NCBI GenBank assembly: GCA_965218435.1
Contig: CBDCKW010000009.1
Coordinates: 3,552,001-3,616,000 of the forward strand
DNA from: Truepera sp.
GTDB taxonomy: Bacteria > Deinococcota > Deinococci > Deinococcales > Trueperaceae
Length of the DNA stretch: 64,000 nucleotides
Direction: 5' to 3'
Notes under the pieces: model-generated
Database searches by the model: none
What the model was told of the DNA's origin: nothing
Seen by the model: the letters and a program-made list of their open reading frames with translations, nothing else
Shown here: in pieces, positions 2 through 64,000 of the stretch
How the letters are laid out: the number at the start of each line of letters is the position of its first letter
Position numbering within the stretch: the first letter of the stretch is position 1
Translations under genes and position numbers: made by a program

Positions 2-325
2 CCGCTTCCGCTTGAAGATTGGGACGCGCCGACTCCGGCGGGTGACCCGGTGGAAAAAATCGGGCTCGAGGGCGCGGTCGCCACGCTCGCGGGCGATGAG
101 CGCGAACTTATCGAACTGGCGTTTTACCAAGGTCATTCGCATCAGGAGTTGGCGGAACTGACCGGTAGACCGCTCGGCAGTATTAAGAGCAAACTCCGCA
201 GCGCACTGCGCAAACTGCGCACTCAGCTAGATGACGGCGTAGAAGATGACACTCGTGATTCAGGTACCGACGCCACCGGGGGTAGAGCTTTAGACCGTTC
301 AGATGAGAAGGGAGGTGAGGCATGA
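2..325 (+). CDS. ECF RNA polymerase sigma factor (SigK/RpoE-like), 3' part only
   Basis: Frame open from window edge; region-4 HTH pattern ERELIELAFYQGHSHQELAELTGRPLGSIKSKLRSALRKL; ATGA overlap with anti-sigma gene. Confidence 0.88.
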   Translation, partial: PLPLEDWDAPTPAGDPVEKIGLEGAVATLAGDERELIELAFYQGHSHQELAELTGRPLGSIKSKLRSALRKLRTQLDDGVEDDTRDSGTDATGGRALDRSDEKGGEA

Positions 326-1098
326 CCGTAGATCAAGATACGCTGGTAAGCTACGCGCTCGGCACCCTTACTCCCCAAGCTGAGGCGGAAGTTGCGGGCT
401 ACCTTGGGGCGCACCCTGAAGACGCGGCGCTGGTCTCCGGATATCTCGAGAGCCTTGCCGACTTTGCGCTGCTCTTGCCCCCGGAGCCCCTCCCGGAAAC
501 CGGTGAAGCCGACTTGATCGCAAGGATTCGGGGTACGGCCCCGCTCGCGCCGGTTATTCCTGACGCGCCGCCCGAAACGCAAACCGGACGCCCCGATACC
601 AGACAACCTGACACCAGACAACCTGACGCACCTGCTACCAAACCGCCCCCTGTGATCGTCGTGCCGAAACGTCCGCATAACCCCAACCTCTGGTTAGCCG
701 GTTTGGGCGCTGTTGCAGTTGCCGCGATGCTCTACTTTGCTGTAGTCACGTTTACCGACCCGAATGTGAGATACGCCCGCGAGTTGGAACAGTACCAGGC
801 CGAACCGGGCGCACAGTCGTACGCGCTGGCCGTAGACGGTGAGGCGAAGCCGCTCGGGACGCTCGTGCGGCTCCAAGATGGGCGCGTCTTCGTCCTGGTA
901 GACTCGCCCCCGGTAAACAATCAGGTGTATCAGGCGTGGAACATCGGCGCTGCGGCGACGTCGCTCGGAACTTTTACGGACCGCGCCTTTTTAAGCCAAG
1001 CTGCCGTGCCGTTGGGGAACACCTTTGGGCTGACGCTCGAGCCTCCCGGCGGCAGCGACCAACCCACCACCACGCCGCTCACATTGGTTAAACTCTAG
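322..1098 (+). CDS. Anti-sigma factor, RskA-like (membrane anchored)
   Basis: N-term YALGTL..EAEV, Pro-rich linker, one TM helix, C-term YQAW...FGLTLEPPGGSDQPT typical of RskA_C; coupled to sigma gene. Confidence 0.85.
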   Translation: MTVDQDTLVSYALGTLTPQAEAEVAGYLGAHPEDAALVSGYLESLADFALLLPPEPLPETGEADLIARIRGTAPLAPVIPDAPPETQTGRPDTRQPDTRQPDAPATKPPPVIVVPKRPHNPNLWLAGLGAVAVAAMLYFAVVTFTDPNVRYARELEQYQAEPGAQSYALAVDGEAKPLGTLVRLQDGRVFVLVDSPPVNNQVYQAWNIGAAATSLGTFTDRAFLSQAAVPLGNTFGLTLEPPGGSDQPTTTPLTLVKL

Positions 1099-1182
1099 GG
1101 TTAAACTCTAGGGCTGAGTTTTAAGGTCGAGCTTCGGGAGGTCAGCGAACGTCATCTGTGGCCACAGTTTGTAGTCTGTCCC

Positions 1183-1208
1183 GCATCCAACTTGCGTAAG
1201 AGCGGGTA
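1183..1208 (+). promoter_or_regulatory. Putative ECF-dependent promoter of CHRD gene
   Basis: GCATCC-N16-GGTA, resembling CATCC-type -35 elements of SigK-like ECFs, directly downstream of the sigma/anti-sigma pair. Confidence 0.4.
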
Positions 1209-1260
1209 TATGTGAAGAGAACCACTTAGAGCCCAGCTCTACATTCGAAAGGAGTTCTTT

Positions 1261-1770
1261 ATGAAACGCACCTTTTTACTTGGTCTTTTACTAACTCTTG
1301 GCGTGGCAATGGCGCAGGGCATGTCGGGCGGGATGATGTCGGGCGGCGAAATGATGTCCGGTGGCATGATGTCTGGCGGCAGCATGATGGGCCAGCCCTT
1401 CCAGGTCACACTCTCGGGTGACAACGAAGTGCCCCCGGTAACGACCGACGCAACCGGCAGCGCAACCGTTACACTGATGGGCGACACCATGACCGTCAAC
1501 GGCGACTTTTCCGGCTTAAGCAGCCCGGTTATCGAAATTGCGGGTAGCTCCGGTCACATCCATATGGGCGCAGCCGGTGAAAACGGCGACGTGATCTTCC
1601 CCCTTAACGTAAGCGTAGACAGTGGGCAGACCAGCGGAATCTTCAGCCTGTCAACCACGCTTACCCCCGACCAGGTCAGTGCCTTTGAAGCAGGCGACTT
1701 GTATATCAACTTCCATACGGAGATGAATCAGGGCGGCGAGATTCGCGGACAGATTACACCGGGAATGTAA
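1261..1770 (+). CDS. Secreted CHRD-domain protein with Met/Gly-rich N-terminus
   Basis: AAGGAG RBS, signal peptide (AMA-Q), LSGDNEVPPV, HIH.GAAGENG, LYINFHT...GGEIRGQI CHRD motifs. Confidence 0.9.
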   Translation: MKRTFLLGLLLTLGVAMAQGMSGGMMSGGEMMSGGMMSGGSMMGQPFQVTLSGDNEVPPVTTDATGSATVTLMGDTMTVNGDFSGLSSPVIEIAGSSGHIHMGAAGENGDVIFPLNVSVDSGQTSGIFSLSTTLTPDQVSAFEAGDLYINFHTEMNQGGEIRGQITPGM

Positions 1771-1783
1771 TTTCGTTTTTCCC

Positions 1784-1813
1784 AAGAAGGCGGCTTTCGG
1801 GTCGCCTTTTTTT
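1784..1813 (+). terminator. Intrinsic terminator
   Basis: AAGGCGGCT-TTCG-GGTCGCCTT stem-loop then T run. Confidence 0.85.
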
Positions 1814-1899
1814 GTTGTAATGCTCGGTTCATTTTGGCGGGTTTTCTTTTTGCCCGAGTACAAAATTTCAAAACGCTTATAGTTGAATATAGTCAAAGG

Positions 1900-2832
1900 G
1901 TGGCGCAGCGACTAGAACAAGTAGAGCTTGGCGGCGTCAAACAGTGGCTCTTGCTCAGAGGCGCTGAAACGCGCCCTATCTTGCTCTTTTTACACGGCGG
2001 CCCCGGCAGCGCCGAGATCGCTACGGCCAGTCGCTATCAGCGGGAGCTCGAGCCCCACTTTTTGGTCGTCAATTGGGATCAGCGCGGCGCTGGCAAATCG
2101 CGCGACCACGGCGTTTTAAGCGTTGAGCAACTCGTCTCTGATACCACCGAACTTATCAACCTGCTCTTAGCGAGGTTTGGGCGGCAAAACCTGTACCTGC
2201 TCGGCCACTCGTGGGGCAGCGCGTTAGGTCTTCTTGTTACGCACCGCTCTCCTGAGCTTGTGCGCGGCTTTATCGGCGTCGGTCAGCTGGTAGACGGGGC
2301 CGAAAATGAACGCTTATCTTTTAGGCATGTGAGGGAGTACGCACGCCGCACAAATAATCGGCTGGCACTTTGGCACCTACGCCGTCATGCACCGCCTTAC
2401 GGCTGTGATGTTCGTGCGCTCCTCGCGCAGCGCACGTGGCTTTACCTGTCTCGAGGCTTTTTTTATTCGCGCGTGGCCGCGCTGCGTTACGTCCTGGCTT
2501 TTCTGACCTCGACTACCTACAATTTGCCCGACAAACTCGGCTACTCCCGCCACCTGCGGACCTCACTCCGGCAGCTCTGGCCGGAAGTGGAAGCCTTAAA
2601 CCTTTCCAGAGACGTTCCCGGCGTCGAGGTTCCGGTTTTGTTTTGCTTCGGAAAATATGACATGACGACCCCTTCAGCTCTGGCCGTGCGGTATTTTGGG
2701 GCGCTGGTAGCGCCCAGCAAGCAGCTCGTGTGGTTTGACGCGTCGGCTCACTGTCCGAACCTCCAGGAACCCCGAAAGTTTGCCTCGGTCGTAACTGCGT
2801 GGGCTGGGCGAACGGGTGAGCCACCGCTATAG
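1900..2832 (+). CDS. Alpha/beta hydrolase (proline iminopeptidase-like)
   Basis: HGGPG, WDQRGAG, GHSWG nucleophile, catalytic D/H; start moved to GTG 1900 because TATAGT lies 6 nt upstream (leaderless). Confidence 0.85.
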   Translation: MAQRLEQVELGGVKQWLLLRGAETRPILLFLHGGPGSAEIATASRYQRELEPHFLVVNWDQRGAGKSRDHGVLSVEQLVSDTTELINLLLARFGRQNLYLLGHSWGSALGLLVTHRSPELVRGFIGVGQLVDGAENERLSFRHVREYARRTNNRLALWHLRRHAPPYGCDVRALLAQRTWLYLSRGFFYSRVAALRYVLAFLTSTTYNLPDKLGYSRHLRTSLRQLWPEVEALNLSRDVPGVEVPVLFCFGKYDMTTPSALAVRYFGALVAPSKQLVWFDASAHCPNLQEPRKFASVVTAWAGRTGEPPL

Positions 2833-3856
2833 TCAGGTCATGACGGCCAACATCTTGTCCCCTTACGGTAAAAACGTCACCGCTGAGCTGAACGATGTCT
2901 ACAACTTAGCGTCTGTTGACGAACTCCTGGAACGCGTCTCTAACTTTTTGGCAGCTGGCTACGGATTTGCAGAGGTTCACATCGAGGAAATTTACGTCGC
3001 TTTTGGCATCGCCGTCAGATTTTCTCACGCCGGTACGAGTTACTATCTGAAGTTCACCGGACGTGCGAACCACGGAGACCCGGAAGGCTTGTTTGCTTAC
3101 CGCGAGTATCTCAGAAAGCAGCAACTCCCTCTCCCTGAAATCGTCGAAACCGTAAACGGAACGTACTTTGAAACTATCCTTGACAATTCTCCTTACGACG
3201 TGACCTATGGGATGAAAACGCTTCCCGGCAGGCCAATCACCCGGAAGACCGTGGGAGAACTCGAGCAGTACGCCCATGTGATGGCCCAGTTTCACCGTCT
3301 CGGCGCAACCTACGAACCCAAGGTTTACGCCAGGTCGCGGGATGTGCACAGGTATTTTGCGGAGGCTCGAGACGATTTAGAGAGCGTAGCTTATGTTCAC
3401 GCGAGGCTCGAGCCGCTTAAGACAAACAACACCTTGTCAAAAACGCATATTCACAGAGACTTTCGGCTTTGTCACGCTCTATTTGAAGACCAAACGCTGT
3501 CAGGCATTATTGACGCCGAGCACGCGGAATATGCTGAACGTATCTTCGACGTTTGCATGGGGCTCGTCAGTCACCCTAATCCTGCTCAGTGCCTACTCCT
3601 AAACTTGGGTGAAATCCTGGAGTATATAAAATATTATGATAGGCTCTACCCGCTTACCCAACCCGACCGTCAGGCACTCAAGGCGATGCTGCTGTGCGCT
3701 CTACTCAACGAGCTGTCTGGCGCTTTTCTCTTCGTTGATACCGGGCAGAGTGAGGCAAGGGAGACAGACATCGCTAAACTGTGGTTGATACTGAAGCACG
3801 TTGAGCCGTTACCCGACGATTTGGGGCTTTTTAGCTCACATCGCCCAACTGCTTGA
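2816..3856 (+). CDS. APH / homoserine kinase type II-like phosphotransferase
   Basis: YYLK, MAQFH, IHRDF (HGD-like) and GIID motifs; start could be ATG 2840. Confidence 0.7.
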   Translation: MSHRYSQVMTANILSPYGKNVTAELNDVYNLASVDELLERVSNFLAAGYGFAEVHIEEIYVAFGIAVRFSHAGTSYYLKFTGRANHGDPEGLFAYREYLRKQQLPLPEIVETVNGTYFETILDNSPYDVTYGMKTLPGRPITRKTVGELEQYAHVMAQFHRLGATYEPKVYARSRDVHRYFAEARDDLESVAYVHARLEPLKTNNTLSKTHIHRDFRLCHALFEDQTLSGIIDAEHAEYAERIFDVCMGLVSHPNPAQCLLLNLGEILEYIKYYDRLYPLTQPDRQALKAMLLCALLNELSGAFLFVDTGQSEARETDIAKLWLILKHVEPLPDDLGLFSSHRPTA

Positions 3857-4277
3857 TCTCTTCGATAAACCGGTCTACCGAATCAAAATCGCGGTAAACG
3901 CTTAGAAAGCGGATATACGCCACGTCGTCCAAGCTTTTTAAGAACCGGAGCGCCTTGATGCCGATAGCCTCAGCCTGCACTTCGGGCGTCTGCACGGCGT
4001 CTTCAAAGGTGTAGGCGAACTCGCGGAGCTGTTTTTCGGTGATGGGGCGTTTGTTACAGGCAATCCTGAGCTTTTGTAAGAGTTTGTCGGGATTAAACGC
4101 CTCGCGCCGCCCCGAACGTTTCACAACCATCAGCGCCTCGAACTGCGCGCGTTCGTAGGTGGTAAAGCGGCGACTACAGACGGCGCACTCGCGCCGCCGC
4201 CGAATCGCCGTGCCCTCGTCGCTGGGGCGCGAATTGACGACGCGGGTGTCGTCCGAAGAGCAAAATGGGCAGTTCAC
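3831..4277 (-). CDS. nrdR: Transcriptional repressor NrdR
   Basis: CPFC...IRRRRECAVCSRRFTTYE zinc ribbon, ATP cone, DDVAYIRF.SVYR. Confidence 0.97.
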   Translation of the reverse strand: MNCPFCSSDDTRVVNSRPSDEGTAIRRRRECAVCSRRFTTYERAQFEALMVVKRSGRREAFNPDKLLQKLRIACNKRPITEKQLREFAYTFEDAVQTPEVQAEAIGIKALRFLKSLDDVAYIRFLSVYRDFDSVDRFIEEIKQLGDVS

Positions 4278-4323
4278 AGGTTGTTCATAACTTATTTCTC
4301 ATGGATTATTTACCGGTGAGGCG

Positions 4324-5172: not shown

Positions 5173-5279
5173 GACGTTTAAGCATACAGGTTTTTACGCG
5201 CTCAGGTGAAACTTGGCGCAGCTTCGGGGCTTCGTCTCCGGCACGTTGCCCTAGACTGCGGCCCTGTTAAGATGAGGCT

Positions 5280-5342
5280 ATGACCCTTAGGAACACCCGT
5301 AGCAATACCGGTAGCAACAATAAGAGCAGCTTATGGCGCTAG
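5280..5342 (+). CDS. Putative leaderless 20-aa upstream ORF ([20 protein letters not shown])
   Basis: TAAGAT-6nt-ATG; ORF overlaps accD start by 10 nt. Confidence 0.35.
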
Positions 5343-8190: not shown

Positions 8191-8241
8191 CAGAGCGCAC
8201 GCGCCGAGTCTCCTCGAGCTGATCCGGTTGCCTGCGTCCTT

Positions 8242-21885: not shown

Positions 21886-22617
21886 ATGGTGGCGCAATCA
21901 CTAGGGGGCAAGGTCGTTCTAATCACGGGCGCGAGTTCGGGAATCGGTGCAGCGACAGCTCGAGCACTCGCCAAACTAGGCTGCAAGCTGGCTCTAGCAG
22001 CGAGGCGGGCGGATAGGTTAGAAACGCTTGCCTCGAGCCTCCCTACAGAAACCCTCTGCCTCAAGACGGACGTGACCAATGCCGAAGATATAACGAGAAT
22101 GGTCGAGCGGACGGTAGCGCACTTCGGACGTATTGACGTGCTCTTTGCCAATGCGGGCCTTTATATTCCTGGCGAGGCTGCCGAGGGGGACCCGGACGCC
22201 TGGGCGCAACTTATGGATGTGAACGTTAGCGGCGTACTGCGGAGCGTCCGCGCGGTACTCCCTCACATGATGGCGCAGAAGTCCGGCGATATTCTCGTCA
22301 CCAGCAGCATCTCGGGTTTTGTTGACATTCACTGGGAACCCGTCTACAGCGCCTCTAAACATGCCGTACAGAGCTTTGTTCACACGCTGCGCCGTCAGGT
22401 TGCGCCGCACAATATCCGCGTGGGCGCGGTGGCACCGGGGATGGTCGCCAACGAGCTCTGGGGGTTTGAAGACCAGGCTAAAATTGACGCGAAGGTCAAA
22501 GAACACGCCAGCCTAACTTCGGAAGATGTAGCGGAGGCAGTGGTGTTTATGCTCAGCCGCCCGCCGCACGTGACGATTCGTGACCTTGTGTTGGTGCCGC
22601 AGCAGCAGGACATATGA
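21886..22617 (+). CDS. SDR oxidoreductase (ribitol dehydrogenase-like)
   Basis: TGASSGIG, ANAG, WEPVYSASK. Confidence 0.9.
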   Translation: MVAQSLGGKVVLITGASSGIGAATARALAKLGCKLALAARRADRLETLASSLPTETLCLKTDVTNAEDITRMVERTVAHFGRIDVLFANAGLYIPGEAAEGDPDAWAQLMDVNVSGVLRSVRAVLPHMMAQKSGDILVTSSISGFVDIHWEPVYSASKHAVQSFVHTLRRQVAPHNIRVGAVAPGMVANELWGFEDQAKIDAKVKEHASLTSEDVAEAVVFMLSRPPHVTIRDLVLVPQQQDI

Positions 22618-22623: not shown

Positions 22624-23715
22624 ATGAAGGTGAGAAATATGCCTTTTAGCACTGATACCTACCGTATTCTTATTGCCTCGCCGTCTGATTTAGCAGAAGA
22701 GAGGCAAATAGCTACGGAGGCAATAAACGATTGGAACGCTCAGCACGCGGTTGCCGAGTCAATCATGCTATTGCCTATCAAATGGGAGACGCACGCTGTT
22801 CCACAGTCAGGAGCTAGACCACAAGACGCCATTAACTGTCAGTTAGTACAAGAATGTGACATTTTGATAGGCATGTTTTGGACAAAAATTGGTACAAACA
22901 CAGGTGTCAGTGAGTCGGGAACCGTAGAAGAAATTGACCAATTTGTAGAAGCGGGAAAGCCCACTCTACTTTACTTTTCTAGTCGCCCAATAAATCCGGA
23001 CAAAATAGATATGAAGCAGCATAGGAGGCTCAGAAAGTTTAGAGATGAAACCTACGCGAAAGCGTTAGTGGGCAGCTTTGACAGCCTGGAGAAACTAAAA
23101 AATACGTTAATCCGTGACCTGTTACGTCAAGTACGGGAATTGAAGGCAGAGAAACCGCGTAGCCAAGATGTTGAACTTGACCAAGCGTTTAAGCTCACTG
23201 AACTTATTAGAACACACCGACAGAATAACATCACACCTGAAGATTTTCAAAAGTATCGTGATAATGTTCTTGGGCTCAAGCGCCGCTCTGACTCCGTGAC
23301 ATCAGACCCCGTGCAACCAGGAGAAGTTGGCCCAAATGGTTACAGAGTTGGCTATACACAAGAGGGCGACAAGGTTGAGTGGATACCTGATGATGAAAAT
23401 CCTGGCGAAGAATGGCCGCTTGTGCTACGACGTAGTGACCGAGCAATTATGGACGCTCACAACGAGTTTTGGGATAAAGTGTGGTGGAATCGTCATCAGA
23501 ACTGGCTCTATCAATTAGAAGCTGGCGAAGATGTTCTTACAGAAGAGCAAAAGCCTATCTTAGAACGAGCTAGAAGTGCTGCCAAGCTTATCGAGCAAAA
23601 GTATGGTGAGGAGAACCTTGGCTGGGATGATTTCGAGTGGGGGCTTTTGAGTGGGAAGCTTTCGGCGCTTGCTTGGATAACTGGAGCTGAATGGGAAGAA
23701 TCATTAGACACATAA
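22624..23715 (+). CDS. DUF4062-like (TIR/SLOG-like) domain protein with Trp-rich C-terminal module
   Basis: [34 protein letters not shown]; lower GC than flanks. Confidence 0.75.
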
Positions 23716-23745
23716 AAAAGCAGGCTCGAGTCTCCTCAAGCCTGC
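23714..23745 (-). terminator. Terminator of the cysQ-sat-cysC operon; contains right direct-repeat copy
   Basis: Minus strand GCAGGCTTGAG-GAGA-CTCGAGCCTGC-TTTTTT. Confidence 0.8.
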
Positions 23746-23765
23746 CCAAAAATCTGCTGGAATCT

Positions 23766-24398
23766 CTACGCTTTAACTTTTAAGTACCCGCGTTCGGCCA
23801 ACTCTTCCATAATCTGCACGACACTCTCTTCAATGCTGTTCTGGTCGGTGCGGAGCGTAATTTCGGGTTGGTCGGGCGCTTCGTAAGGGTCGTCAATGCC
23901 GGTAAAGTGTTTGATTTCGCCCGCTCGAGCCTTTTTGTATAAGCCTTTGGGGTCGCGGTCTTCGCACACATCGAGCGGCGTATCCACAAACACTTCGATA
24001 AATTCGCCGTCGTCTACCAACTCGCGCACTTGCTCGCGGTCGCGGCGGTACGGCGAGATAAACGCGGTCAGCACGATGGTGCCGCCGTCAACGAAAAGTT
24101 TGGCGACCTCTCCGATACGGCGGATGTTCTCTTCGCGGTCATCGGCGCTAAAGCCCAGATTTTTGTTGAGGCCGTGCCGCACATTGTCGCCGTCGAGCAA
24201 GTAGGTGTGGTAGCCACGGGCGTAGAGGGCCTGCTCGAGCGCGTTCGCTACCGTGGATTTGCCCGCGCCTGAAAGCCCGGTAAACCACAAGATGCAGGGG
24301 CGCTGGTGCTTGAGCGATCCACGCTCTTCTTTCGAGAGCGTTTGGCTGTGCCAGACGATGTTCTCGGCTTTAATGCTGTCAGCTTTAACTTGCGACAT
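23766..24398 (-). CDS. cysC: Adenylyl-sulfate kinase
   Basis: [38 protein letters not shown]. Confidence 0.97.
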
Positions 24399-24399
24399 C

Positions 24400-25575
24400 T
24401 TACACGGTCTCTTTCTCGGCGTTGCGGTACGACTGAATCAGCACCTCGGCAACTTCAGGGCGCGAAAACTCGGGGGGCGGCAGCTGACCTTGTGAGAGCA
24501 TCGCGCGGACCTTGGTGCCGGAGAGTTGGATGCGCTCTTCAGGCGTAGAGGAGGTCGTTTTCGGCGTCGCCATCTGCTCGGTGCGGAGGCAGTAAAAGGC
24601 GTGCTCGAACTTCATTGGGGTAATCAGCAGGTCACCGTCGTTTAGCTCGTCAAAGATGTCTTGTGCGTCGTAAGTCCCGTAGTAATCGCCGACACCCGCA
24701 TGGTCGCGCCCGACGATGAGGTGCGTACAACCGTAATTCTGGCGCGAAATCGCGTGCAAAATCGCTTCGCGGGGGCCGCCGTACCGCATCGCAGCGGGGT
24801 AGACGCCCAAAATCACCTTATCTTGGTTGTAGTAGCGTTCGATCAAGATGGTGTAGCACTGCATCCGCACCGACGCGGGGATGTCGTCGGATTTGGTCGT
24901 ACCGACGAGCGGGTTGATAAACAGGCCGTCAACGGTCTCGAGCGCGATCTTGGTGATGTATTCGTGTGCCCGGTGAATGGGGTTACGCGTCTGAAACGCA
25001 ACGATCGTACCCCAGCCTTTTTCTTGGAATTTGGCCCTGGTTTCTTTTGGGTAAAACTTGTCGTTGTCAAACTCGCCTTTGGGCAACTCACTAATGAGTG
25101 AAATCGGCCCACCCAAGTAGACGCTGCCCGCGCCCAGCATCGCCGCGACGCCGGGGTGCTTGCTGTCGCCCGTCCGGTAGACCTGCTGCGCTTCGTGGGT
25201 CTGGTCGGGGCGGTACACGTCGGTCACGGTCATGACCGCGAGGACGTTGCCGCCGGTCGTCAGGGCGATGTCTTGGCCGACCGGGTACTGTGCGGCAACG
25301 TCTTCTTTGACCTGCAAAGTGATTGGGATGCTCCAGACTGTCCCGTTAGAGAGGCGCATATCGTTGACGACGCTTTGATAATCTGCTTCACTGACGAAGC
25401 CTTCTAACGGGCTGTAGATGCCGTAAGCGAGGCACTCGAGGTCAGCCAAGTTGCGCTCGGACAATGTAAGTTTGGGCAGGTCTTGCGCACGTTTTACGGC
25501 GTCGTCACGGTCTTGACCGGTCAAGACGCGGTCAACGAGGGTGCCGCCGTGCGGGGCGATGAGGGGTTTAGACAT
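24400..25575 (-). CDS. sat: Sulfate adenylyltransferase
   Basis: [34 protein letters not shown]. Confidence 0.97.
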
Positions 25576-25650
25576 AAGAACTCCTTATGAGATGACGGGT
25601 TATAAAAGCGAACAGCTTAGGGCAGGGTTGCCCAGTTAGCTATAGCCTAC

Positions 25651-26478
25651 CTAGTTAGTAGCGTTTAAGTCCACTTCAGAAGCTTTTGCAAAAAGCGCGT
25701 CGCTCTTGGTCACGATAAAGTGCGGGTTTAAGAGATTTTCTTTGTTGTAGCGGAGCGGCCCGCCGCCGGGTTCGCGGACGCTCGCCCCGGCTTGTTCGGC
25801 GACGCACTGCGCGGCGGCGGTGTCCCACTCCATCGTCGGGCCAAAACGCGGGTAGAGGTGGGCCTGACCGTCGGCGACCAGGCAGAGTTTTAAGGAGGAC
25901 CCGCTCGAGACCAGGTTCACTTTTGTAGTTTGCTCGAGTTCTTTGACCAAGGTTTCAGTCGCGGCCCCGGCGTGCGACCGGCTCGCTACTAAGTTGAGCG
26001 GGCCGCTGTTCGTGGTGTAGTCGTGCGCTTCGATGCGGGTGTCGGTATTTTCACCCTTAAACGCGCCCAGACCCGCCGCCGCCCAATAGGTCAGTTCTAG
26101 GGCCGGGGCGTAAACGACGCCGAAGACCGGCACACCGTCTTCAATGAGCGCGATGTTGACGGTAAACTCGCCGTTACGTTTGATAAACTCTTTGGTGCCG
26201 TCTAACGGGTCAACGAGCCAGAACTGCGTCCAGTCTTTGCGCTCGGCAAAGGGCAGATGCTTCGACTCTTCGGATAACACCGGGATGTCCGGGGTCAGTT
26301 TGTGCAGCTGCTCTAAAATCACCCGGTTTGAGGCGAGGTCGGCTTTGGTCAGGGGTGAATCGTCGGCTTTGGTTTCGACGCCGAAGTCTCCACTTTCGTA
26401 AACCTGCATAATGGCGTCTCCGGCAGCTTTAGCCGTGGCGATAAGCTCGGGCGCGAGCGCCTCTAGGTTGATAGACAT
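25651..26478 (-). CDS. cysQ: 3'(2'),5'-bisphosphate nucleotidase
   Basis: KADDSPLTKAD, WLVDPLDGTKEF, SRSH, GSSLK, EWDTAA. Confidence 0.95.
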   Translation of the reverse strand: MSINLEALAPELIATAKAAGDAIMQVYESGDFGVETKADDSPLTKADLASNRVILEQLHKLTPDIPVLSEESKHLPFAERKDWTQFWLVDPLDGTKEFIKRNGEFTVNIALIEDGVPVFGVVYAPALELTYWAAAGLGAFKGENTDTRIEAHDYTTNSGPLNLVASRSHAGAATETLVKELEQTTKVNLVSSGSSLKLCLVADGQAHLYPRFGPTMEWDTAAAQCVAEQAGASVREPGGGPLRYNKENLLNPHFIVTKSDALFAKASEVDLNATN

Positions 26479-26548
26479 AAAAACTCCTCAGTGGGACTAT
26501 TGGCGGGGCTACTAAGAGAAGACCCCAAAACTTTTACATCATAACGTG

Positions 26549-27769
26549 TTAGCGGCGAGCTTCTTTGTACGTTTGCTCGAGCACCCCGATCAGCTCGGCA
26601 GCGAGGCCGTCTCTGGAAAAGCGGTCTTCGGCCAGTTGACGCGCCTGCCGACCCGCGCTTTTCAGCCACGCCTCGTCACGTAACGCCCTCAGCAGCGTAT
26701 CTTTCGCCTTATCCATGTCGTGCGGGTCAAGTACCAAACCGGCCCCGGTTTCGCGTAAAATATCGGCCTGCCAGCCGCCGTAATTGATCAGTACCGGCCT
26801 TCCGGCAGCGAGCCCGTCGAAAAACTTGTTCGCCGAATTGACCCACATCTCTTTCAGGTCAATAAATAACGACGAGGCGAACGTTGCTGCCGAGAGCACT
26901 GCCGGAACCTGCTTTTTGGGAATCGGCCCCGGCATAAAGAGCGTTTCATCAAAAACGCCGAGTTCCTGAGCGCGAGCTTTAAGATTGTTGTAATCATACC
27001 CGCCGCCGTAAACCGCGAAGCGCACGTCAGGCGCTTCGGCGCGGACCTTGGCGGCGAGGTCGGCCATATACGGCACGCCGTTAATCTGGCCCATCGTACC
27101 GACGTAGACGATAAACGGCCGGTCGCCCAGCCACGCGTGCTCAGCCCGGTACGCGTCACCCGCCGACTTCGGCACGTCAAAAAGGGCTAAGTCACAGCTG
27201 TTGGGGATGACGTGAACGCGTTCCGCCGGATAGCCGGTGTTGACGATACCCTCTTTCATTCCCGGTGAGAGGGCGATCACCTGCGCGGCGTTGCGGTAGG
27301 CAAAACGCTCGAGCCTTTTGGCGGCGTAGATGGTCGGCTCCCCTTTCAGTGCGCCTATTGCAATCGGGAGTTCCGGCCAGAGGTCGCGGACTTCAAACAC
27401 CATCGGCACACGCCGGCGTCTAGCTGCCCACACTGCCGGGAGCGCAATGGTGAGCGGCGTGCTGCTCGCAAAGATCAGGTCAGTTGGGAGACTCGCCGCC
27501 TTTTGCGCTGCGCCGCGGGCATAGTTAAAAAACGCGCCAATACGGTCGCGGACGCTCATCGTATTCGAGTACGGCACCGGCAACCAATGAACGCGAATGC
27601 CGGCTTCGTCTGAGACACGCCAGCCGCTCCCTGGCGCTGCGTGCCGGTCGGCCGTAATCAGGTTGACCTCGTGCCCGCGTGCTACGAAACGGCGGGCCAT
27701 TTCGTAAGACCTGGTGCTGCCGGGAACCTCGGGCGTGTGAAAATACTGGTGCAAGTAGGTGATCTTCAT
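26549..27769 (-). CDS. GT4 glycosyltransferase (WbuB-like)
   Basis: HQYF, FEVRDLWPE, NSANKFFDGLAAGRPV. Confidence 0.92.
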   Translation of the reverse strand: MKITYLHQYFHTPEVPGSTRSYEMARRFVARGHEVNLITADRHAAPGSGWRVSDEAGIRVHWLPVPYSNTMSVRDRIGAFFNYARGAAQKAASLPTDLIFASSTPLTIALPAVWAARRRRVPMVFEVRDLWPELPIAIGALKGEPTIYAAKRLERFAYRNAAQVIALSPGMKEGIVNTGYPAERVHVIPNSCDLALFDVPKSAGDAYRAEHAWLGDRPFIVYVGTMGQINGVPYMADLAAKVRAEAPDVRFAVYGGGYDYNNLKARAQELGVFDETLFMPGPIPKKQVPAVLSAATFASSLFIDLKEMWVNSANKFFDGLAAGRPVLINYGGWQADILRETGAGLVLDPHDMDKAKDTLLRALRDEAWLKSAGRQARQLAEDRFSRDGLAAELIGVLEQTYKEARR

Positions 27770-27791
27770 AGGCTTATCGTCTCATACGGGC

Positions 27792-29030
27792 TTACTTAGG
27801 CGCTGTACGAGGTGAGCTGCGAGCCGCCTGGAACTTGGCCTCGAGCTTGTCTACCACGCCGCCGATGTCGTACTCGGCCATCACCCGGTCGCGGCCACGC
27901 TGCCCCTGTCTGAGCCGTTCGGGTTCGTTGCGAACAAACAGTGTCAATGCGTCCGCTAAACTGCCGACATCTTCCGGTGGAATCAGCTGCCCGCTTCCCG
28001 CTGTCAGCAGTTCACGAGTACCGCCAACGTCGGTGGCAATCGCCGGGAGTCCCCGCGACATCGCCTCGAGGAGCGCAATCGAGATGCCTTCGTGTAGACT
28101 CGGCAACACAAACGCGTCGTAACGGCCTTCGCTATAGCTGTCTAGTAATTCGGTATGGTCTACGTTCCCTAAAAAGGTTACTTGCTCGGTAATGCCTAAA
28201 ACTTGGGCCTGCGTCACAAGCGCGTCCCTTTCGGGGCCGTTTCCGGCGAAGCTGATCTGAACGTTGATCCCCTGGGTTTGGAGGCGGTGGACGGCCCCCA
28301 ACAAAAACCGCTGGCCTTTACGCGGAATCAGGCTCCCGGTACAAGTTACCCGCAACTGCACACCGGGCGGCGGGGCAGTTTTCTCTAAAGGACGGTTGCT
28401 CAGCGGGACGCCCATCCGGATGATCTCGGCTTTTTGCTCGAGCGCGGGTCCGGCAACCGGACGGGCGAGCTCTAAGCCGTCTTCTGAAATAAAGCGGACG
28501 AAACGGGCGCTGTCAACTTTGGCCGGGAACGCGTTGGGTGTTTCGATGTCCCAGCGGTGCGCCGTAAAACTCCACGGCACGTCGCTCGTCTCGCCTGCGA
28601 CCAGCGCCATCGTCGCCGCGACCGACGCCCAATACGCGTGAATATGTTCAGCTCCCCAGCGACGGGCAAGGTCGGCGAGCCACATTGATTTGGGAAACGA
28701 GCCGAGATTTTTTCGCACCATCCACCGTTCAGGCAGGCCGACCAGGGTTCGGGAAAGCGCCCCTACTGCCCGTATAGGTGAACGGACAAAACCAGTTGGG
28801 GCTGCCTTTAACACGTTTTTTGATAAGAGCGCCTCGTAGTCCGTCAGCTCTAAAAAGGGTTCGGCGTCGCTATGAATCTCTGCGGAGTAACGCGTTACCG
28901 GGACGATCTTGAGGTCGTGACCCCGCCGCACCAGCTCGCGCATTTCCGGAAGGGCGAACACTTCGGTCACGCCGTAGGGTAGCGACGCAGTGACGTAAAT
29001 GATCTTCACCGGTTTGGCCCGGACGAACAC
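27792..29030 (-). CDS. GT4 glycosyltransferase (WcaL-like)
   Basis: HIHAYW, SFTAH, EGISIALLEAM. Confidence 0.9.
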   Translation of the reverse strand: MFVRAKPVKIIYVTASLPYGVTEVFALPEMRELVRRGHDLKIVPVTRYSAEIHSDAEPFLELTDYEALLSKNVLKAAPTGFVRSPIRAVGALSRTLVGLPERWMVRKNLGSFPKSMWLADLARRWGAEHIHAYWASVAATMALVAGETSDVPWSFTAHRWDIETPNAFPAKVDSARFVRFISEDGLELARPVAGPALEQKAEIIRMGVPLSNRPLEKTAPPPGVQLRVTCTGSLIPRKGQRFLLGAVHRLQTQGINVQISFAGNGPERDALVTQAQVLGITEQVTFLGNVDHTELLDSYSEGRYDAFVLPSLHEGISIALLEAMSRGLPAIATDVGGTRELLTAGSGQLIPPEDVGSLADALTLFVRNEPERLRQGQRGRDRVMAEYDIGGVVDKLEAKFQAARSSPRTAPK

Positions 29031-55661: not shown

Positions 55662-55685
55662 GATATATTTCATCTCTACCCGGTG

Positions 55686-57146: not shown

Positions 57147-57182
57147 AGAGTAGTCTACCGAGGCGTTATACTCACCGGCAGC

Positions 57183-58067: not shown

Positions 58068-58087
58068 CTGCCCCTCAAACTGACGTT

Positions 58088-59772: not shown

Positions 59773-59785
59773 CTGTCGGGGGCTG

Positions 59786-59920
59786 CTAGTGTACGTCCGG
59801 GTCGTCCTCGGCAGACTCGGCGGCGAGCGCGTGACCGGCAAAGGTCAGCGCCCCAGCTAAAAGCGTAACCCCGGAAAAAACGAGCACAGCGTTAAGTGCG
59901 ATTTGAAGCGCCGTAGCCAT
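59786..59920 (-). CDS. Unannotated 44-aa single-TM protein
   Basis: GGAGG-4-ATG, MATALQIALNAVLVFSGVTLLAGALTFAGHALAAESAEDDPDVH. Confidence 0.6.
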   Translation of the reverse strand: MATALQIALNAVLVFSGVTLLAGALTFAGHALAAESAEDDPDVH

Positions 59921-60102
59921 AGTGCCTCCCAAGGCCCCAGTTTACGCTATTTGGACGAGGCGCAGGGCGCGAAAGTTCAACCGACCTTGCCACTACCGGT
60001 TGTACAAATACTGACTGTATAAACACTGACTGCGCGAACGCCGACGAACCACCAGATGTAAGGTTTTCCCTTGCCTAACACGCCGTCATCCTCCATATTG
60101 GA

Positions 60103-61149
60103 GTGATGAGAGACCACGCCATCGTCCCTACCGCGCAGCGCCTGGCCGAAGAAAATAATGTAGATTGGCGGGTGCTGACCGGGAGTGGTGAAGGGGGCAG
60201 CGTCGTCGAGCGCGACGTGCTGGGTTACCTTGCGCGGGTGATGCGCGGCGAAGAAGCGACGGACCCGACGCCCGAACCTCTGCCCGAAGGTTTAAGTGCG
60301 TGGCCCGAAGAGCCGGAGCGCCGCCGAGGAGCGGCCAGCCAGCATAAAACCAATACGGCTACGGCGACGCGGCCGGAACCTCGAGCCGAAAGTTCCGGCA
60401 GTCAGAGCCCAAAGGGTCAAGAGCCGGACTTTTCTACCCCTTTTAGTGAGCCACGTTCGGCCAAGGTCACTCAGTCAAGCCCAGAAACTGAAGCGTACGC
60501 ACCTTGGACGGTTGACAAACCTGCTAAGGCTACCTTAGAGACGCCTATTGCCGAAAGAGCTTTTTTGCAAGCTGACGCTACTACGCCCAAACCGGCTCCT
60601 GAAACCTTCGCAAATACTGCTAAAACAAATACTGCTAAAACCGGTGCGCCCCCGGTGCAACCCGAACCTGAAGCCCCTGCGCCTGAAGTTTTTACAGCCG
60701 AAGTTTTTGCACCTGCGTCTGTCCCGACTGCACCACCGAAAGAGAACGTTGCCGAGGCGTACCGCCTCGCTTTGGCCGCACTCGAGACCCTCCAAACCCG
60801 CGTTGCCGAGCTTGAAGAGGAGCGGTCACGGCATGTGAACGAACTGCACCAGCTTTCACGGATGCAAGAGACCATCGCGCTACAAAAAAATGAAGGAGCC
60901 AAGGTCGGGGCGTTGCAGAGTGAAGTGCGCGACCTCAAGTCTCAACTTGCAGCGGCGCAGCGGGCGAGTGAGCGGGTCGAGACTCTGGCAGAGCATAACC
61001 GTGACCTCGAGGCGCGGCTGGTGCGGGCGCGAACCTTTAAGAGCCAAGCCAAAGCCGAGTTTGAACGCCTCTTAGAAGACCACATGATGCTCGAGCACGA
61101 ACTCGCCGACCTTAAAAAGGCGCGTCGGGGGCTGTTTCGTAAGGGCTAG
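60103..61149 (+). CDS. E3-binding (PSBD)-domain protein with disordered linker and coiled coil
   Basis: PTAQRLAEENNVD...LTGSGEGGSVVERDV; P/T/A linker; heptad C-terminus. Confidence 0.75.
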   Translation: MMRDHAIVPTAQRLAEENNVDWRVLTGSGEGGSVVERDVLGYLARVMRGEEATDPTPEPLPEGLSAWPEEPERRRGAASQHKTNTATATRPEPRAESSGSQSPKGQEPDFSTPFSEPRSAKVTQSSPETEAYAPWTVDKPAKATLETPIAERAFLQADATTPKPAPETFANTAKTNTAKTGAPPVQPEPEAPAPEVFTAEVFAPASVPTAPPKENVAEAYRLALAALETLQTRVAELEEERSRHVNELHQLSRMQETIALQKNEGAKVGALQSEVRDLKSQLAAAQRASERVETLAEHNRDLEARLVRARTFKSQAKAEFERLLEDHMMLEHELADLKKARRGLFRKG

Positions 61150-61305
61150 GCGCTGAGCCGCCAGGAGCAGTCGGTGACGGTTGCGGCGCACTAGAGAAGA
61201 ATGCAGAAGTCAGAAGGTGCTGACTTGGAGAAGGTGGTGTAGCTCATACACTCGGAGGATAACGATAAAAGCAAAGCTCAGTACGGCCTAGTCGAGCCGT
61301 TTTAC

Positions 61306-61494
61306 CTACGCTAACGCACTAAAAAACGCACAGCTTAGCACCGGTTGCCCAGGGTATTTGGGCGTTTCCGGGTGTACGCAGCGGACAAAGACGCTCTCCC
61401 GGCTGCTCCTTACCAGCCGCGCGGCGGCGCAGCGCCCACAGAGCCCGCCCCGAGCTGCGTGCTCGAGCGCGGCCTTATCAGTTACGTCGTTCAC
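61306..61494 (-). CDS. Small Cys-containing hypothetical protein
   Basis: GLCGRC..S.R.SVF.RC..PKYP..PVL.C; follows nqo15. Confidence 0.6.
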   Translation of the reverse strand: MNDVTDKAALEHAARGGLCGRCAAARLVRSSRESVFVRCVHPETPKYPGQPVLSCAFFSALA

Positions 61495-61508
61495 GGTAGC
61501 TTCAGGTA

Positions 61509-62030
61509 CTACTCGGCGGGCTCGCTGTCACTGTTGTAGAGCATATCGGCAAGTTCAACGAGCATCTCGCGGGTAAATGGCCGTTTGCCTTCGGCGAGTG
61601 CGCCTTTTTTTGCGTCATAGGTCAGTTTGCGGTACACGTGTGATTCAAACGGATGCAGCGTCACCTCTTTGAACACGGTGTGACGCGGCGAGGCGCTGAG
61701 CAGCAGCAGGGGTCGCCCTTTGGGGTCGGAAAGGCTCGCGGACATGATGATCGTCGGCAAATCGTACGGACGTTCCATCCGGTAGATATAGTCGGTAAAG
61801 TCGGCCTCTTTTTCAAACAGCGCGCCCTCGTGCGTTTCGGCGTACTCAACCATCCAGTCTAACAGCTCTTTCCAAGCGGCGTAAAAGGCTGTTTCAGCAC
61901 TTTGACGGGCTTGCACCTGGGCTGAGGCTCGAGACTCGTCTTGGGGTCTATCATGAACGTCTTGCGTATTGCTGGGAGCACTTTGAGACGTGCCTTGCTT
62001 GTTCGGGGCGGCGGGGTCGCGGTTAGCCAT
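61509..62030 (-). CDS. nqo15: NADH-quinone oxidoreductase subunit 15
   Basis: W.ELL.WM.EYA, FEKEADF.DYIYRMERPYDLPT, SPRH as recalled for Thermus Nqo15. Confidence 0.88.
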   Translation of the reverse strand: MANRDPAAPNKQGTSQSAPSNTQDVHDRPQDESRASAQVQARQSAETAFYAAWKELLDWMVEYAETHEGALFEKEADFTDYIYRMERPYDLPTIIMSASLSDPKGRPLLLLSASPRHTVFKEVTLHPFESHVYRKLTYDAKKGALAEGKRPFTREMLVELADMLYNSDSEPAE

Positions 62031-62082
62031 AGGGTCAGTTTACCCTTATCGGGCGCACGCTTATCGGGATATAGTAGCCCCT

Positions 62083-62319
62083 ATGAGAGTTTTACTGTTA
62101 GCTTTCCTCGTCGCCGTCCTAAGTGCTTGTGACGGACCCATCGACCTCGTTGACCCCTATGACCGGATTCAAGGCGAACCGAGCGGCCAAAGCCAGACGC
62201 TTGGCGACACGGCGGTCAATGAACCTGAAGCGCACACGGTCACGTCCGGGGCTGAAAGTGGCGGCGCAGGGGGTGTCCAGACAAATGAAGCGTCCGGCGG
62301 CGCTGAAGAAGGTCACTAG
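62083..62319 (+). CDS. Small lipoprotein
   Basis: TATAGT-7-ATG, MRVLLLAFLVAVLSAC. Confidence 0.65.
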   Translation: MRVLLLAFLVAVLSACDGPIDLVDPYDRIQGEPSGQSQTLGDTAVNEPEAHTVTSGAESGGAGGVQTNEASGGAEEGH

Positions 62320-62336
62320 CCCGCTCTAACCCAGCT

Positions 62337-63533
62337 CTAACTACGAGTGACCTCGAGCCCCACCGGATAGCGGAAGACGTTTTTGGGCTGATACCTGGGC
62401 GTCCCGAGTAACTTTAGCTCAGGCGTATGGGTTAGCAGGGCTTTGAGCGCGTGGCGTAACTCGAGCCGCGCCAAAGGTGCGCCGATACAGTAGTGAAGCC
62501 CGAGTCCAAACGACAGGTGCGGGTTCGGATGCCGCGTCGGGTCAAACGTATCAGGGTCGGCAAAGACGCGTTCGTCACGGTTGGCCGAAGCGTAATAGAG
62601 GCATAACTTGGTGCCTTTAGGCCAGAAGAGGTCTTGATACACCAAATCTTCGCGGACGACACGCTCGAAAAATTGTAGCGGCGTATCAAACCTGAGGGTT
62701 TCTTCAACTGCCGTTTCCAGCTGTTCCGGGTGCGCTTTAAGCGCCTCCCAAAGCTCAGGACGGGACAAGAGCGCAATCAGCCCGTTGCCGACGACGTTGA
62801 CCACCGCTTCGTGACCGGCATCTAAAAAGAGGATCGCATTGGCGACGATTTCAGCTTCGCTGAGGCGTGCCGGGTCGGTAGCATGTAGCTTCACCATCCG
62901 GCTGATGAGGTCGTCTTGCGGCGCGGCGCGTTTTTCTCCCATGAGTTCTCGGACGTAGGCGGCAAACTCACGCGCGGCGGTGACGGCCGCCGCCTCTGCC
63001 TCGGGGGTGCGTTCGGGTTCAAACATCCCGATAATCGCTTTTGACCATGGGACAAGTTGGTAACGGCCCTGTTCAGGTACACCGAGCAGTTCGGCGATTA
63101 CGGTGACCGGAATCGGTTCGGCAAAGTCGCGTAACAGGTCGGCGCGGCTCCCGATTGTAAGTTTTTCGGCAAGCTCAGCGGCTAAACGGTTGCACAGAGC
63201 TGAAATCTTACCCTCTAACGCCCGCACGTGTTTGGGCGTAAACACATCTTGCACCGCTGTCTTGATTCGGGTGTGGTCGGGGGGCTCGAGCTCTAAGAGT
63301 GAGCCGTCTTGAATATCGTCGAAGGGTTCATAAGCCGTATTAAGACGAACTTTGGTGTTCGTAAGCACACGCCCAAGCCGCCGGTCACGCAGTAACACAC
63401 TGACGTCTGCGTGGCGCGTGACGATCCATTTGCCCCACGGCTCATAAAAAAAGATCGGCGCGTCGTCTCTGAGCTGCTGATACACCGGGTATGGGTTTTG
63501 TAGAAAAGTGGGGTCGGTCGGCCGAAACGTCAT
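62337..63533 (-). CDS. Cytochrome P450
   Basis: EPPDHTR, AGHE, EETLRFD, SFGLGLHYCIG. Confidence 0.96.
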   Translation of the reverse strand: MTFRPTDPTFLQNPYPVYQQLRDDAPIFFYEPWGKWIVTRHADVSVLLRDRRLGRVLTNTKVRLNTAYEPFDDIQDGSLLELEPPDHTRIKTAVQDVFTPKHVRALEGKISALCNRLAAELAEKLTIGSRADLLRDFAEPIPVTVIAELLGVPEQGRYQLVPWSKAIIGMFEPERTPEAEAAAVTAAREFAAYVRELMGEKRAAPQDDLISRMVKLHATDPARLSEAEIVANAILFLDAGHEAVVNVVGNGLIALLSRPELWEALKAHPEQLETAVEETLRFDTPLQFFERVVREDLVYQDLFWPKGTKLCLYYASANRDERVFADPDTFDPTRHPNPHLSFGLGLHYCIGAPLARLELRHALKALLTHTPELKLLGTPRYQPKNVFRYPVGLEVTRS

Positions 63534-63823
63534 AAGGTTATTTTAGGTGGTGAGTTACCCCATGCACTAGCCCTGCTCCGGTATGACGCGGTTGCAATCA
63601 TCTGTTTCTGCTGTCCGTAAAGGCGTCCGTCAAAGGCGTCCGTAAAAGTAAAGGCGCTTAAGCCCGGCGAGCTGCTCGCGCAGTAGTTGGGCTGGAAAAC
63701 CACATGACTTTTTGTGTCCGCAGCGTCAGTGACCATAGACTTAACGTCATAAGCGTCTCGCTACGACCAAACGCCTTGTCACCGGACTAGAAAATTCGGG
63801 CACATCGGTTAAGCTCGAGCTTT

Positions 63824-64000
63824 ATGGGAAACGCTGCCGCCATCTGGTCTCTACTCGTCGCCGCTTTGTCAGGGCTACTGATCGGGCTCGAGCGTGAACG
63901 CAAACGGGAAACGCGCGGCTCGATTTTTGCAGGCATCCGCACCTTCCCGCTGATCGCACTTTTAGGTGCGGTTTGCGGTCAGCTTTCACACGAACTCGGC
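63824..64000 (+). CDS. MgtC/SapB family membrane protein, 5' part
   Basis: Translated by hand: MGNAAAIWSLLVAALSGLLIGLERE...AGIRTFPLIALLG; runs off window. Confidence 0.85.
   Translation, partial: MGNAAAIWSLLVAALSGLLIGLERERKRETRGSIFAGIRTFPLIALLGAVCGQLSHELG

Follow-up and report, generated by a model that had tools for sequence, protein, structure and literature searches.

The palindrome CTCGAG is abundant in the Truepera genome (G000) and in most of the phylum Deinococcota, and it follows the helicase-nuclease AddAB rather than any methylase, an association that is new here. The word is abundant, acts at the DNA level, is retained between species, is spaced more evenly than expected, is enriched on plasmids and phage, has no shared methylase and co-occurs with AddAB. 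We propose it as a candidate palindromic Chi site of the Deinococcota AddAB and put the probability of this reading at about one in two.

In the window, by which we mean the whole 64,000-nucleotide stretch analyzed here, CTCGAG occurs 133 times, once per 481 bp, where 19.6 copies are expected from base composition (57.1% GC), and the runner-up palindromic hexamer reaches 38 copies. An earlier note made from the sequence alone had counted about 130 sites, one per ~480 bp, with about 20 expected at ~58% GC, and had remarked that many were Leu-Glu codons; all three statements hold. The sites do not form a local element; the window samples a pattern found throughout the genome. CTCGAG is the commonest hexamer of the 4.81 Mb genome, with 9,883 copies (about one per 490 bases) and a density of 190-246 per 100 kb over the entire chromosome. 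Its observed/expected ratio (O/E) is 6.7, 6.1, 5.2 and 3.4 at Markov orders 0-3, and falls to just 1.24 at order 4 because CTCGAG dominates its own 5-mers.

About two thirds of the genomic sites encode Leu-Glu. By independent gene calling, 93 of the 133 window sites are in the Leu-Glu frame, 10 and 14 are in the other frames and 16 are outside called genes, a class that includes a few sites in ORFs missed by gene calling, e.g. 22032. Together with the order-4 ratio, the Leu-Glu share might suggest a codon-pair or compositional artefact of Leu-Glu, but we consider this extremely improbable. A dicodon-preserving shuffle retains CTC-GAG by construction, and a synonymous shuffle that keeps the protein was therefore used in its place. 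The observed and expected counts were 6350 and 1960 in the Leu-Glu frame, 493 and 80 in the Ser-Arg/Ala-Arg frame, and 1302 and 246 in the Ser-Ser frame; this 3.2-6.2-fold excess in all three frames, with an intergenic O/E of 7.1 (rank 1), refutes the artefact. Enrichment is also absent from G007, G216 and the Deinococcus-like family f2 at varied GC. The earlier note's description of a HIP-like, lineage-wide motif acting at the DNA level is supported.

Table 1. Positions of CTCGAG features in the window and of the candidate reader genes.
Feature	Position	Strand	Basis or context
CTCGAG field, 133 dispersed palindromes	65..63892	.	word count and gene calls
Intergenic CTCGAG, example	8213..8218	.	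outside called genes
Further intergenic CTCGAG	12315, 18542, 21848, 23725, 30198, 34386, 34442, 41935, 63814		outside called genes
CTCGAG off the Leu-Glu frame, Ser-Arg	2450..2455	+	translation; likewise 9094, Ala-Arg
Third-frame CTCGAG, Ser-Ser, ORF 21886-22617	22032..22037	+	translation
AAGCTCGAGCTT, 12-bp extension of one CTCGAG	63811..63822	.	just ahead of a + strand ORF whose start is near 63824
Candidate reader addB	G000:C9:3363359-3365677	-	outside window, ~190 kb upstream, near oriC
Candidate reader addA	G000:C9:3359875-3362589	-	outside window, ~190 kb upstream, near oriC

All 13 positions named in the earlier note carry CTCGAG; the three coding ones have the reading frames given there, and the ten it called intergenic all fall outside called genes (Table 1). 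The extended palindrome AAGCTCGAGCTT is present as described, but the -10 element it was said to cover is unsupported, as a sigma-70 scan of 63500-63900 returned 0 promoter-like sites. Given the preference for G at -1, which is seen at 53% of intergenic sites, it is probably a chance extension.

The sites show no promoter or terminator preference (1.9-2.5 per kb across all intergenic classes), no cluster at oriC (0 in the dnaA-dnaN gap), no helical phasing and no replichore orientation, the 8-mer flank classes being equal on both replichores. No period was stable: a 3.4 kb peak had P=0.005 at one of three bin sizes, and the remaining two gave P=0.095 and 0.165. Neighboring sites repel one another up to ~300 bp, with log-odds per neighbor of -0.55, -0.23, -0.20 and -0.10 at 6-50, 50-100, 100-200 and 200-300 bp and none beyond; 10 control words lacked such a trend, and the spacing is evened (variance/mean 0.879 vs 0.986 +/- 0.011). 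At conserved Leu-Glu pairs, 82% of sites are retained between species (215/263 and 260/319). None of the other words among the top 44 is retained as well (the runner-up reaches 0.66), and by odds ratio CTCGAG ranks second among them. Codon pairs one change away from the site are drained, with 7 of 46 retained and 18 of 46 facing a CTCGAG site. In substitution models a Leu-Glu-specific jump term persists (21.8 log-likelihood units vs <=1.1 in 7 controls); an apparent x6 exchange at site edges fell to 1.26 once general multi-base Leu exchanges were allowed, which makes the estimate of fast gain model-dependent. In the best non-reversible fit, gain is x4-29, loss in one step is x0.04-0.66 and multi-base exits are poorly determined. 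Of nine settings, six favor selection on the site and against near-sites over a drive model with two parameters, and all nine rank site-only selection last; polarization with three genomes rested on just 25 shared genes.

Mobile DNA is unevenly stocked with the word. Small plasmids (O/E 16.7 and 9.1) and Meiothermus phage MMP17 (7.8) exceed the chromosome (6.5), and 68 of 70 TCGA in the Thermus-like genome G021 and 23 of 25 in Thermus phage Riverbug lie within CTCGAG. Five multicopy IS ORFs hold 0 sites, and low-GC3 genes are also poor. Enrichment reaches 42-58-fold in family f5, and density in relatives reaches one per 160 bp; an anagram ratio overcalls G133 (2.7; O/E ~1 in 20 kb) and undercalls Thermus-like genomes. 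The occurrence in all frames and spacers, the evened spacing, the scarcity in IS ORFs and low-GC3 genes, and type IV pilin-like ORFs in G000 (found with a crude motif) could be taken as signs of a DNA uptake or transfer signal of the DUS/USS kind, spread by biased transformation. The uptake sequences of Neisseria and Pasteurellaceae are alike in their all-frame enrichment, evened spacing and low frequency in recently gained DNA. We nevertheless think this origin quite improbable, as known uptake sequences are scarce on phages and plasmids, whereas CTCGAG, which is also shorter than those sequences and palindromic, is richest there. Furthermore, DNA uptake by Thermus is reported to be unspecific, yet Thermus-like DNA keeps CTCGAG, and an uptake signal leaves the match to addAB loss unexplained.

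The earlier note had also suggested that the motif is methylation-driven. In Elhai's model of HIP, an orphan methylase, here one for CTCGAG, tags a strand for mismatch repair, and sites are created in this way. The short-range repulsion is predicted by that model (PMC4390886), the G at -1 would be in keeping with it, and active orphan m6A CTCGAG methylases are reported from three relatives, Marinithermus hydrothermalis, Meiothermus chliarophilus and M. ruber (PMC4752239, table S3). The XhoI-type methylase is patchy (8 of 161 genomes), although all eight carriers are enriched. Against such a drive, to which we give a low probability, G000, f5 and the majority of enriched genomes yielded no CTCGAG methylase, and the phylum has CTCGAG methylases of at least two unrelated types, while in G020 an SPPY-motif methylase lies next to an XhoI nuclease. 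The published SMRT table for Meiothermus silvanus lists no CTCGAG motif, despite which 50 kb of its plasmid is enriched 3.5-fold, and f5 shows no flank preference. The proposed search for an XhoI/PaeR7I-like methylase or Vsr found neither in G000: no methylase there was assignable to CTCGAG, XhoI nuclease was not found (family matches in 2 of 5 other genomes), and Vsr was present in 0 of 5 enriched genomes. NucS, found in 2 of 5 genomes and not in G000, was set aside. Among 31 genomes the m5C (14) and D12 (12) families yielded no shared enzyme, and orthologues of TaqI-like P0123 were confined to G024 and two Thermus-like genomes; an SPPY match on C5 is an amidohydrolase. The sole conserved Trueperaceae methylase, P0001, has full-length copies in G000 and in 11 of 18 genomes of the family. 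Its family has a nuclease-like partner, and it tracks avoidance of CAGCTG, the palindrome shunned most strongly near distant homologues (0.47), rather than CTCGAG outside the phylum, where 1 of 71 loci (L079) is strongly CTCGAG-rich and two more reach 2.4-2.8 on few sites.

AddA orthologues, searched with a protein query, are present in 76 of 77 genomes outside f2, Truepera included, vs 0 of 84 inside it, 36 of the 125 f2 genomes lying outside the search; a Pfam PD-(D/E)XK_1 search matched 5 of 5 genomes and did not discriminate. In the first set outside f2 the count was 27 of 28 at >420 bits, and the exception, G007, is unenriched (O/E 0.95). Strong enrichment occurs in 3 of the 125 f2 genomes, and AddA is present in all three, as predicted beforehand; it was not found in the unenriched congener G216, nor in G207. 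AddB was found in G176 and G215, and searches of G007 and G216 did not find it. In a quick tree the AddAs of the enriched f2 genomes join those of f5 (support 100) inside a single clade of orthologues (99) whose branching agrees with taxonomy. Fifty of 50 metagenome loci of at least 7 kb with AddB have O/E above 1 (minimum 1.15; 31 at >=2), and five of six AddA-less genomes sampled fall below 1. The word therefore tracks host AddAB, as a Chi site does, with several exceptions: G069 (O/E 3.1, addA and addB both not found), which may reflect a recent addAB loss or an assembly gap; the weakly enriched, AddA-positive G016 and G080 (just 1.17 and 1.21); and G296, for which our forecast that AddA is lacking failed, AddA being present in 5 of 5 low-density f1 genomes. 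PMC11143384 describes addAB as absent from Deinococcus, Thermus AddAB as strongly active on incoming DNA, and a Thermus Chi as assumed rather than named. The co-occurrence with AddAB lends support, of an indirect kind, to the recombinational reading also offered in the earlier note.

AddAB was picked after the family-level pattern had been seen, other genes may share its profile, and the independent losses number only about three (the bulk of f2, G007 and G216), two of them in small genomes (2.1-2.3 Mb) that shed many genes. These few contrasts, the 1.2 to 58-fold range of enrichment among AddAB carriers, the enriched G069, and the drained one-off codon pairs with the poor fit of site-only selection would also suit another sequence-specific protein, of nucleoid or repair type, that has the same loss history and binds CTCGAG or biases mismatches to it, AddAB being a fellow traveller. 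We regard this as unlikely, if worth keeping in mind; no candidate emerged, with the Vsr and NucS distributions as above, and recognition of a short abundant word is established for the AddAB family.

AddB was identified through Atlas AddB_N and PD-(D/E)XK clusters at 0.97 and has a Walker A motif and four invariant cysteines, a pattern likewise given for B. subtilis AddB in PMC3321194. It is shorter (772 aa) than known AddB, and a PDB sequence search found no match to a solved AddB. The Walker A Lys is Arg in 13 of 14 members of the weakly enriched group vs 0 of 19, a change that marks one clade and is therefore confounded; ATP binding at this motif may stabilize the Chi complex (PMC3321194).

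For the proposed Chi function, we infer that AddAB reads CTCGAG and that biased conversion drives its spread. AddAB would degrade from a double-strand end until AddB meets CTCGAG on the unwound strand, after which a 3' tail would be left for RecA; as a palindrome, the site would work from either end, making replichore orientation unneeded. Sites would spread via selection for short resection and via conversion, in which a broken or incoming copy without the site is resected past the spot and then copies the site-bearing allele. Near-matches would be pulled into CTCGAG, a second site near a first would gain less, and plasmids and phages needing to survive AddAB would accumulate the word. The restriction systems and orphan methylases that some members have for CTCGAG would be a result of its abundance, not the cause.

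The E. coli Chi is GCTGGTGG, and we know of no Chi site that is palindromic; the enrichment in f5 also far exceeds that of known Chi sites. CTCGAG resembles the Chi of AddAB/RecBCD in being short, over-represented chromosome-wide and gathered by host-adapted phages and plasmids, and differs in its perfect symmetry, unskewed flanks, lack of replichore polarity and density in relatives. The B. subtilis Chi is 5'-AGCGG (PMC3321194). HIP1 (GCGATCGC) and alternate cyanobacterial HIPs (PMC4390886, PMC5861425) are likewise hyper-abundant palindromes; CTCGAG, whose ~2,050 copies per Mb in all frames and spacers fall in the HIP range of about 1000-2000 per Mb or more, is similarly kept between species beyond codon usage and phylum-wide with losses, with cognate orphan methylases in some members. 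Unlike HIP1, whose abundance was not seen outside cyanobacteria (PMC5861425), it is a 6-mer without fixed extension in another phylum, has no shared methylase where Elhai's definition expects a cognate one per genome, and follows addAB, whereas in Synechococcus PCC 7002 deletion of addAB left the influence of HIP1 on transformation in place (10.1101/2024.09.10.611283). Nocardia has an orphan m5C methylase for the same hexamer, with Vsr and an oriC cluster (PMC4752239); Truepera differs in having no Vsr, no conserved m5C enzyme, a genome-wide distribution and an empty dnaA-dnaN gap. Among the matches listed in our literature search, with subscription papers outside its scope, no report describes CTCGAG as hyper-abundant in Deinococcota or as Chi.

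Rather tentatively, we suggest that a compact Deinococcota AddAB reads CTCGAG as the first Chi known to be palindromic, that conversion biased by AddAB wrote it into up to ~4% of some genomes, and that its loss with addAB marks the Deinococcus switch to RecFOR-only break repair, the word then being actively avoided. HIP-like palindromes have lacked an explained function for 30 years, and a candidate reader is now named for one of them. CTCGAG also becomes a candidate for the Chi that has been left without a name in Thermus thermophilus, a species in which addAB mutants and transformation assays are available (PMC9751324, PMC11143384). Should the reader prove to be something other than AddAB, the paired contrasts of gain and loss (G214/G215 vs G216; G007) would help to find the true factor. 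If it is AddAB, a palindrome can serve as Chi, the phylum's repeated acquisition of restriction systems for CTCGAG would be explained, and CTCGAG would be a design rule for linear DNA delivery into these bacteria.

The palindrome CTCGAG occurs 133 times in the window against 19.6 expected, in agreement with the roughly 130 sites of the earlier note, whose named positions and reading frames were all borne out; the -10 element it placed at one site was not recovered, with no promoter match within 63500-63900. Across the genome (G000; 4.81 Mb, 57% GC) the word is the commonest hexamer with 9,883 copies, and the Markov comparison proposed earlier gives a genome-wide excess, with observed/expected (O/E) ratios of 6.7, 6.1, 5.2 and 3.4 at orders 0-3. 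Density is flat along the chromosome, and nearly all other palindromic hexamers lie at or under expectation. When synonymous codons are shuffled within genes (4,641 genes from our own ORF caller), the three frames keep an excess of 3.2-, 6.2- and 5.3-fold, and between genes the enrichment is 7.1-fold, so the multi-frame and intergenic signal described earlier stands. Leu-Glu pairs are written CTC-GAG in 6,629 of 12,408 instances, the pair itself being 1.26-fold above expectation. The enrichment is a DNA-level signal. Separately, GGCGCC, GGGCCC, TTTAAA, AGGCCT and RGATCY are almost missing from this genome (O/E 0.02-0.14), a sign of restriction systems that act now or did so in the past.

The range of the enrichment was surveyed in 161 genomes of the phylum as the ratio of the CTCGAG count to the counts of four anagrams, with Thermus-like, Meiothermus-like and Deinococcus-like as labels inferred from family structure, size and GC. 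The ratio is 0.9-7.6 in family f1, 1.6-5.5 in family f3, 2.3-8 in 23 Meiothermus-like genomes, 0.9-2.5 in 28 Thermus-like genomes and 0.01-0.5 in the Deinococcus-like family f2, G133 excepted. Thermus-like DNA is also enriched despite its low ratio: in 60 kb of one such genome (G021), 68 of 70 TCGA tetramers lie inside CTCGAG. Family f5 carries 23,000-28,000 sites per 4.5 Mb, with O/E values of 58 and 42 in samples of 100 and 60 kb; these samples show no flank preference, which makes the hexamer by itself the signal. In Deinococcus-like genomes the word is avoided (O/E 0.10 and 0.25). The enrichment is real and phylum-wide, and the lineage-wide motif suspected in the earlier note extends to Meiothermus-like and Thermus-like genomes. 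Avoidance in f2 can be strong (for example in G101, G058 and G210), leaving as few as 26 sites in a genome of 2.9 Mb. A contig of a Myxococcota-labelled genome (L079) holds 45 sites (O/E 5.4), and the genes on it share only 28-56% identity with those of G000; it is either mis-binned or a second lineage carrying the enrichment. In two Thermus-like samples and two from weakly enriched Trueperaceae (L289-L291, L295-L297, L306-L307, L372-L374), TGCGCA ranks first or second among enriched hexamers, with an order-3 O/E of 2.3-2.9.

Methylation had been offered as one driver of the motif, with a search for an XhoI-like methylase or Vsr as the means of detecting it. A methylase that we call XhoI-type, from a presumed resemblance, is present in 8 of the 161 genomes, all 8 of them enriched, and was not found in G000; in G001 it adjoins a frameshifted XhoI nuclease, a second ground for the label. 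No m5C, D12, TaqI-like, Vsr or NucS gene was common to the enriched genomes examined. According to sections of PMC4752239, three species of the phylum have active orphan m6A CTCGAG methylases; none is listed there for M. silvanus, yet enrichment is seen on a plasmid of that species (O/E 3.5, with 63 sites in 50 kb). On these comparisons methylation is not the shared cause. On the simplest reading, the abundance of the word in host-adapted phages would account for the repeated arrival of CTCGAG restriction systems, and methylases would be retained as shields. A nuclease and methylase pair in G020 is probably a further type of such a system. The conserved Trueperaceae methylase P0001 was also considered as a CTCGAG methylase and rejected, as this orphan points to CAGCTG instead; members of its family are paired with a small, unnamed ORF resembling a nuclease, and CAGCTG is avoided where they occur.

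Features located in the analysis
Feature	Location	Remark
P0001, orphan gamma-class methylase	G000:C9:3672240-3673922 (L005)	kept in most Trueperaceae searched
XhoI-family nuclease facing SPPY-motif methylase	L229:1198-3095 (G020)	
Metallophosphoesterase gene, 258 aa	G000:C9:3362586-3363362 (L288:3586-4362)	between addB and addA
oriC candidate, dnaA-dnaN gap	G000:C9:3381298-3381648	~10 DnaA-box matches, 0 CTCGAG
Annotated Vsr gene adjoining D12 adenine methylase	L260:26062-27388	Meiothermus phage MMP17
Contig of Myxococcota-labelled genome	L079:1-12197	

Silent one-mismatch neighbors are depleted in G000 (CTCGAA 0.19, CTGGAG 0.21, CTTGAG 0.31). Where Leu-Glu is conserved in two congeners (400 kb of each compared), CTCGAG is retained in 215 of 263 and 260 of 319 instances. 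Identity at fourfold sites is about 55%, and 7 of 46 one-off states are retained. Substitution models hint at fast gain, beyond slow loss alone, with an estimate that varies with the model. A Leu-Glu pair that lacks another site within 250 bp is CTCGAG in 0.61 of cases, against 0.36 for a pair with four, a repulsion that is gone by 300 bp and that appears as a trend in none of ten control words. Within G000 we found no preference for promoters or terminators, no cluster at oriC, no stable period and no replichore skew in the flanks. The skew minimum of the chromosome lies near 3.36 Mb and the maximum near 1.42 Mb; over its whole length GGGGAGA is strand-skewed 309:111 between replichores, and resembles a KOPS-type signal.

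By replicon, O/E is highest in the small plasmids (16.7 and 9.1), followed by the chromosome (6.5) and a 685-kb replicon (4.2), and five multicopy IS ORFs contain no site. These plasmids (contigs C6 and C8, units of ~13 and 10.5 kb) appear in the assembly as tandem arrays of 1.6 and 2 copies and are the densest DNA of the genome in CTCGAG. The word ranks first in phage MMP17 (86 sites in 33 kb), and in Thermus phage Riverbug 23 of 25 TCGA sit inside it.

The candidate reader is the helicase-nuclease AddAB, whose genes lie near oriC in G000. Its AddA matches AddA/RecB models with scores under their cut-offs; its AddB groups with AddB_N clusters, has homologues annotated as 'ATP-dependent helicase/nuclease subunit B', and keeps Walker A and four invariant cysteines. 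An AddA orthologue occurs in 27 of 28 relatives outside f2, the sole absence being the unenriched G007, and across the phylum sample in 76 of 77 genomes outside f2 versus 0 of 84 inside. Of all 125 f2 genomes 3 are strongly enriched and, as predicted in writing beforehand, all three carry AddA, which was not found in the congener G216 (O/E about 0.8, from 683 sites in 2.3 Mb) or in G207, also as predicted. AddB agrees with AddA in the genomes where it was tested, and a quick AddA tree indicates vertical descent. The word is above expectation in 50 of 50 AddB-bearing metagenome loci of at least 7 kb (80 fetched).

Another written prediction failed: AddA is present in all five lowest-density f1 genomes tested (O/E 1.75-2.43 in the four sampled). 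O/E is only 1.17 and 1.21 in AddA-positive G016 and G080, and in G069 a search found neither gene, yet CTCGAG is enriched 3.1-fold. Strong enrichment thus appears to come close to requiring AddAB, although AddAB by itself seems insufficient. There are about three independent losses, of which two fall in genomes of small size, and the same pattern may hold for further genes. The Walker A lysine of AddB is arginine in 13 of 14 members of a weakly enriched clade versus 0 of 19 elsewhere; this might explain weak cases in light of sections of PMC3321194, and it marks one clade only.

Chi, the recognition signal of AddAB, is non-palindromic in the cases known so far, which speaks against CTCGAG being one. 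CTCGAG shares two features of Chi and differs in lacking polarity; it resembles HIP1, the highly iterated palindrome of cyanobacteria, in abundance and retention, but lacks a shared methylase (sections of PMC4390886 and PMC5861425). It is accordingly a candidate Chi that we file in neither class. Also against the Chi reading, the HIP1 effect in a cyanobacterium is intact after addAB deletion, according to part of 10.1101/2024.09.10.611283. Among the matches listed, no report ties CTCGAG to AddAB or Chi, and the available text of two papers on Thermus, PMC9751324 and PMC11143384, names no Thermus Chi.

The best explanation, to which we give roughly an even chance, is that CTCGAG is a palindromic Chi of Deinococcota AddAB. 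AddB reads single-stranded DNA (established in sections of PMC3321194), and a palindromic Chi would therefore not be forbidden; a signal readable in both directions would suit cells that mend both ends of a break. If resection runs past a spot that lacks the site and the site-bearing allele is then copied, conversion would be biased toward CTCGAG. A second site nearby would cancel some of this bias, which would produce the short-range repulsion, and the word would be of most benefit to DNA that comes in as linear molecules. Transformation of T. thermophilus is 30 to 100-fold better in addAB mutants (excerpts of PMC9751324), which shows that AddAB acts on incoming DNA.
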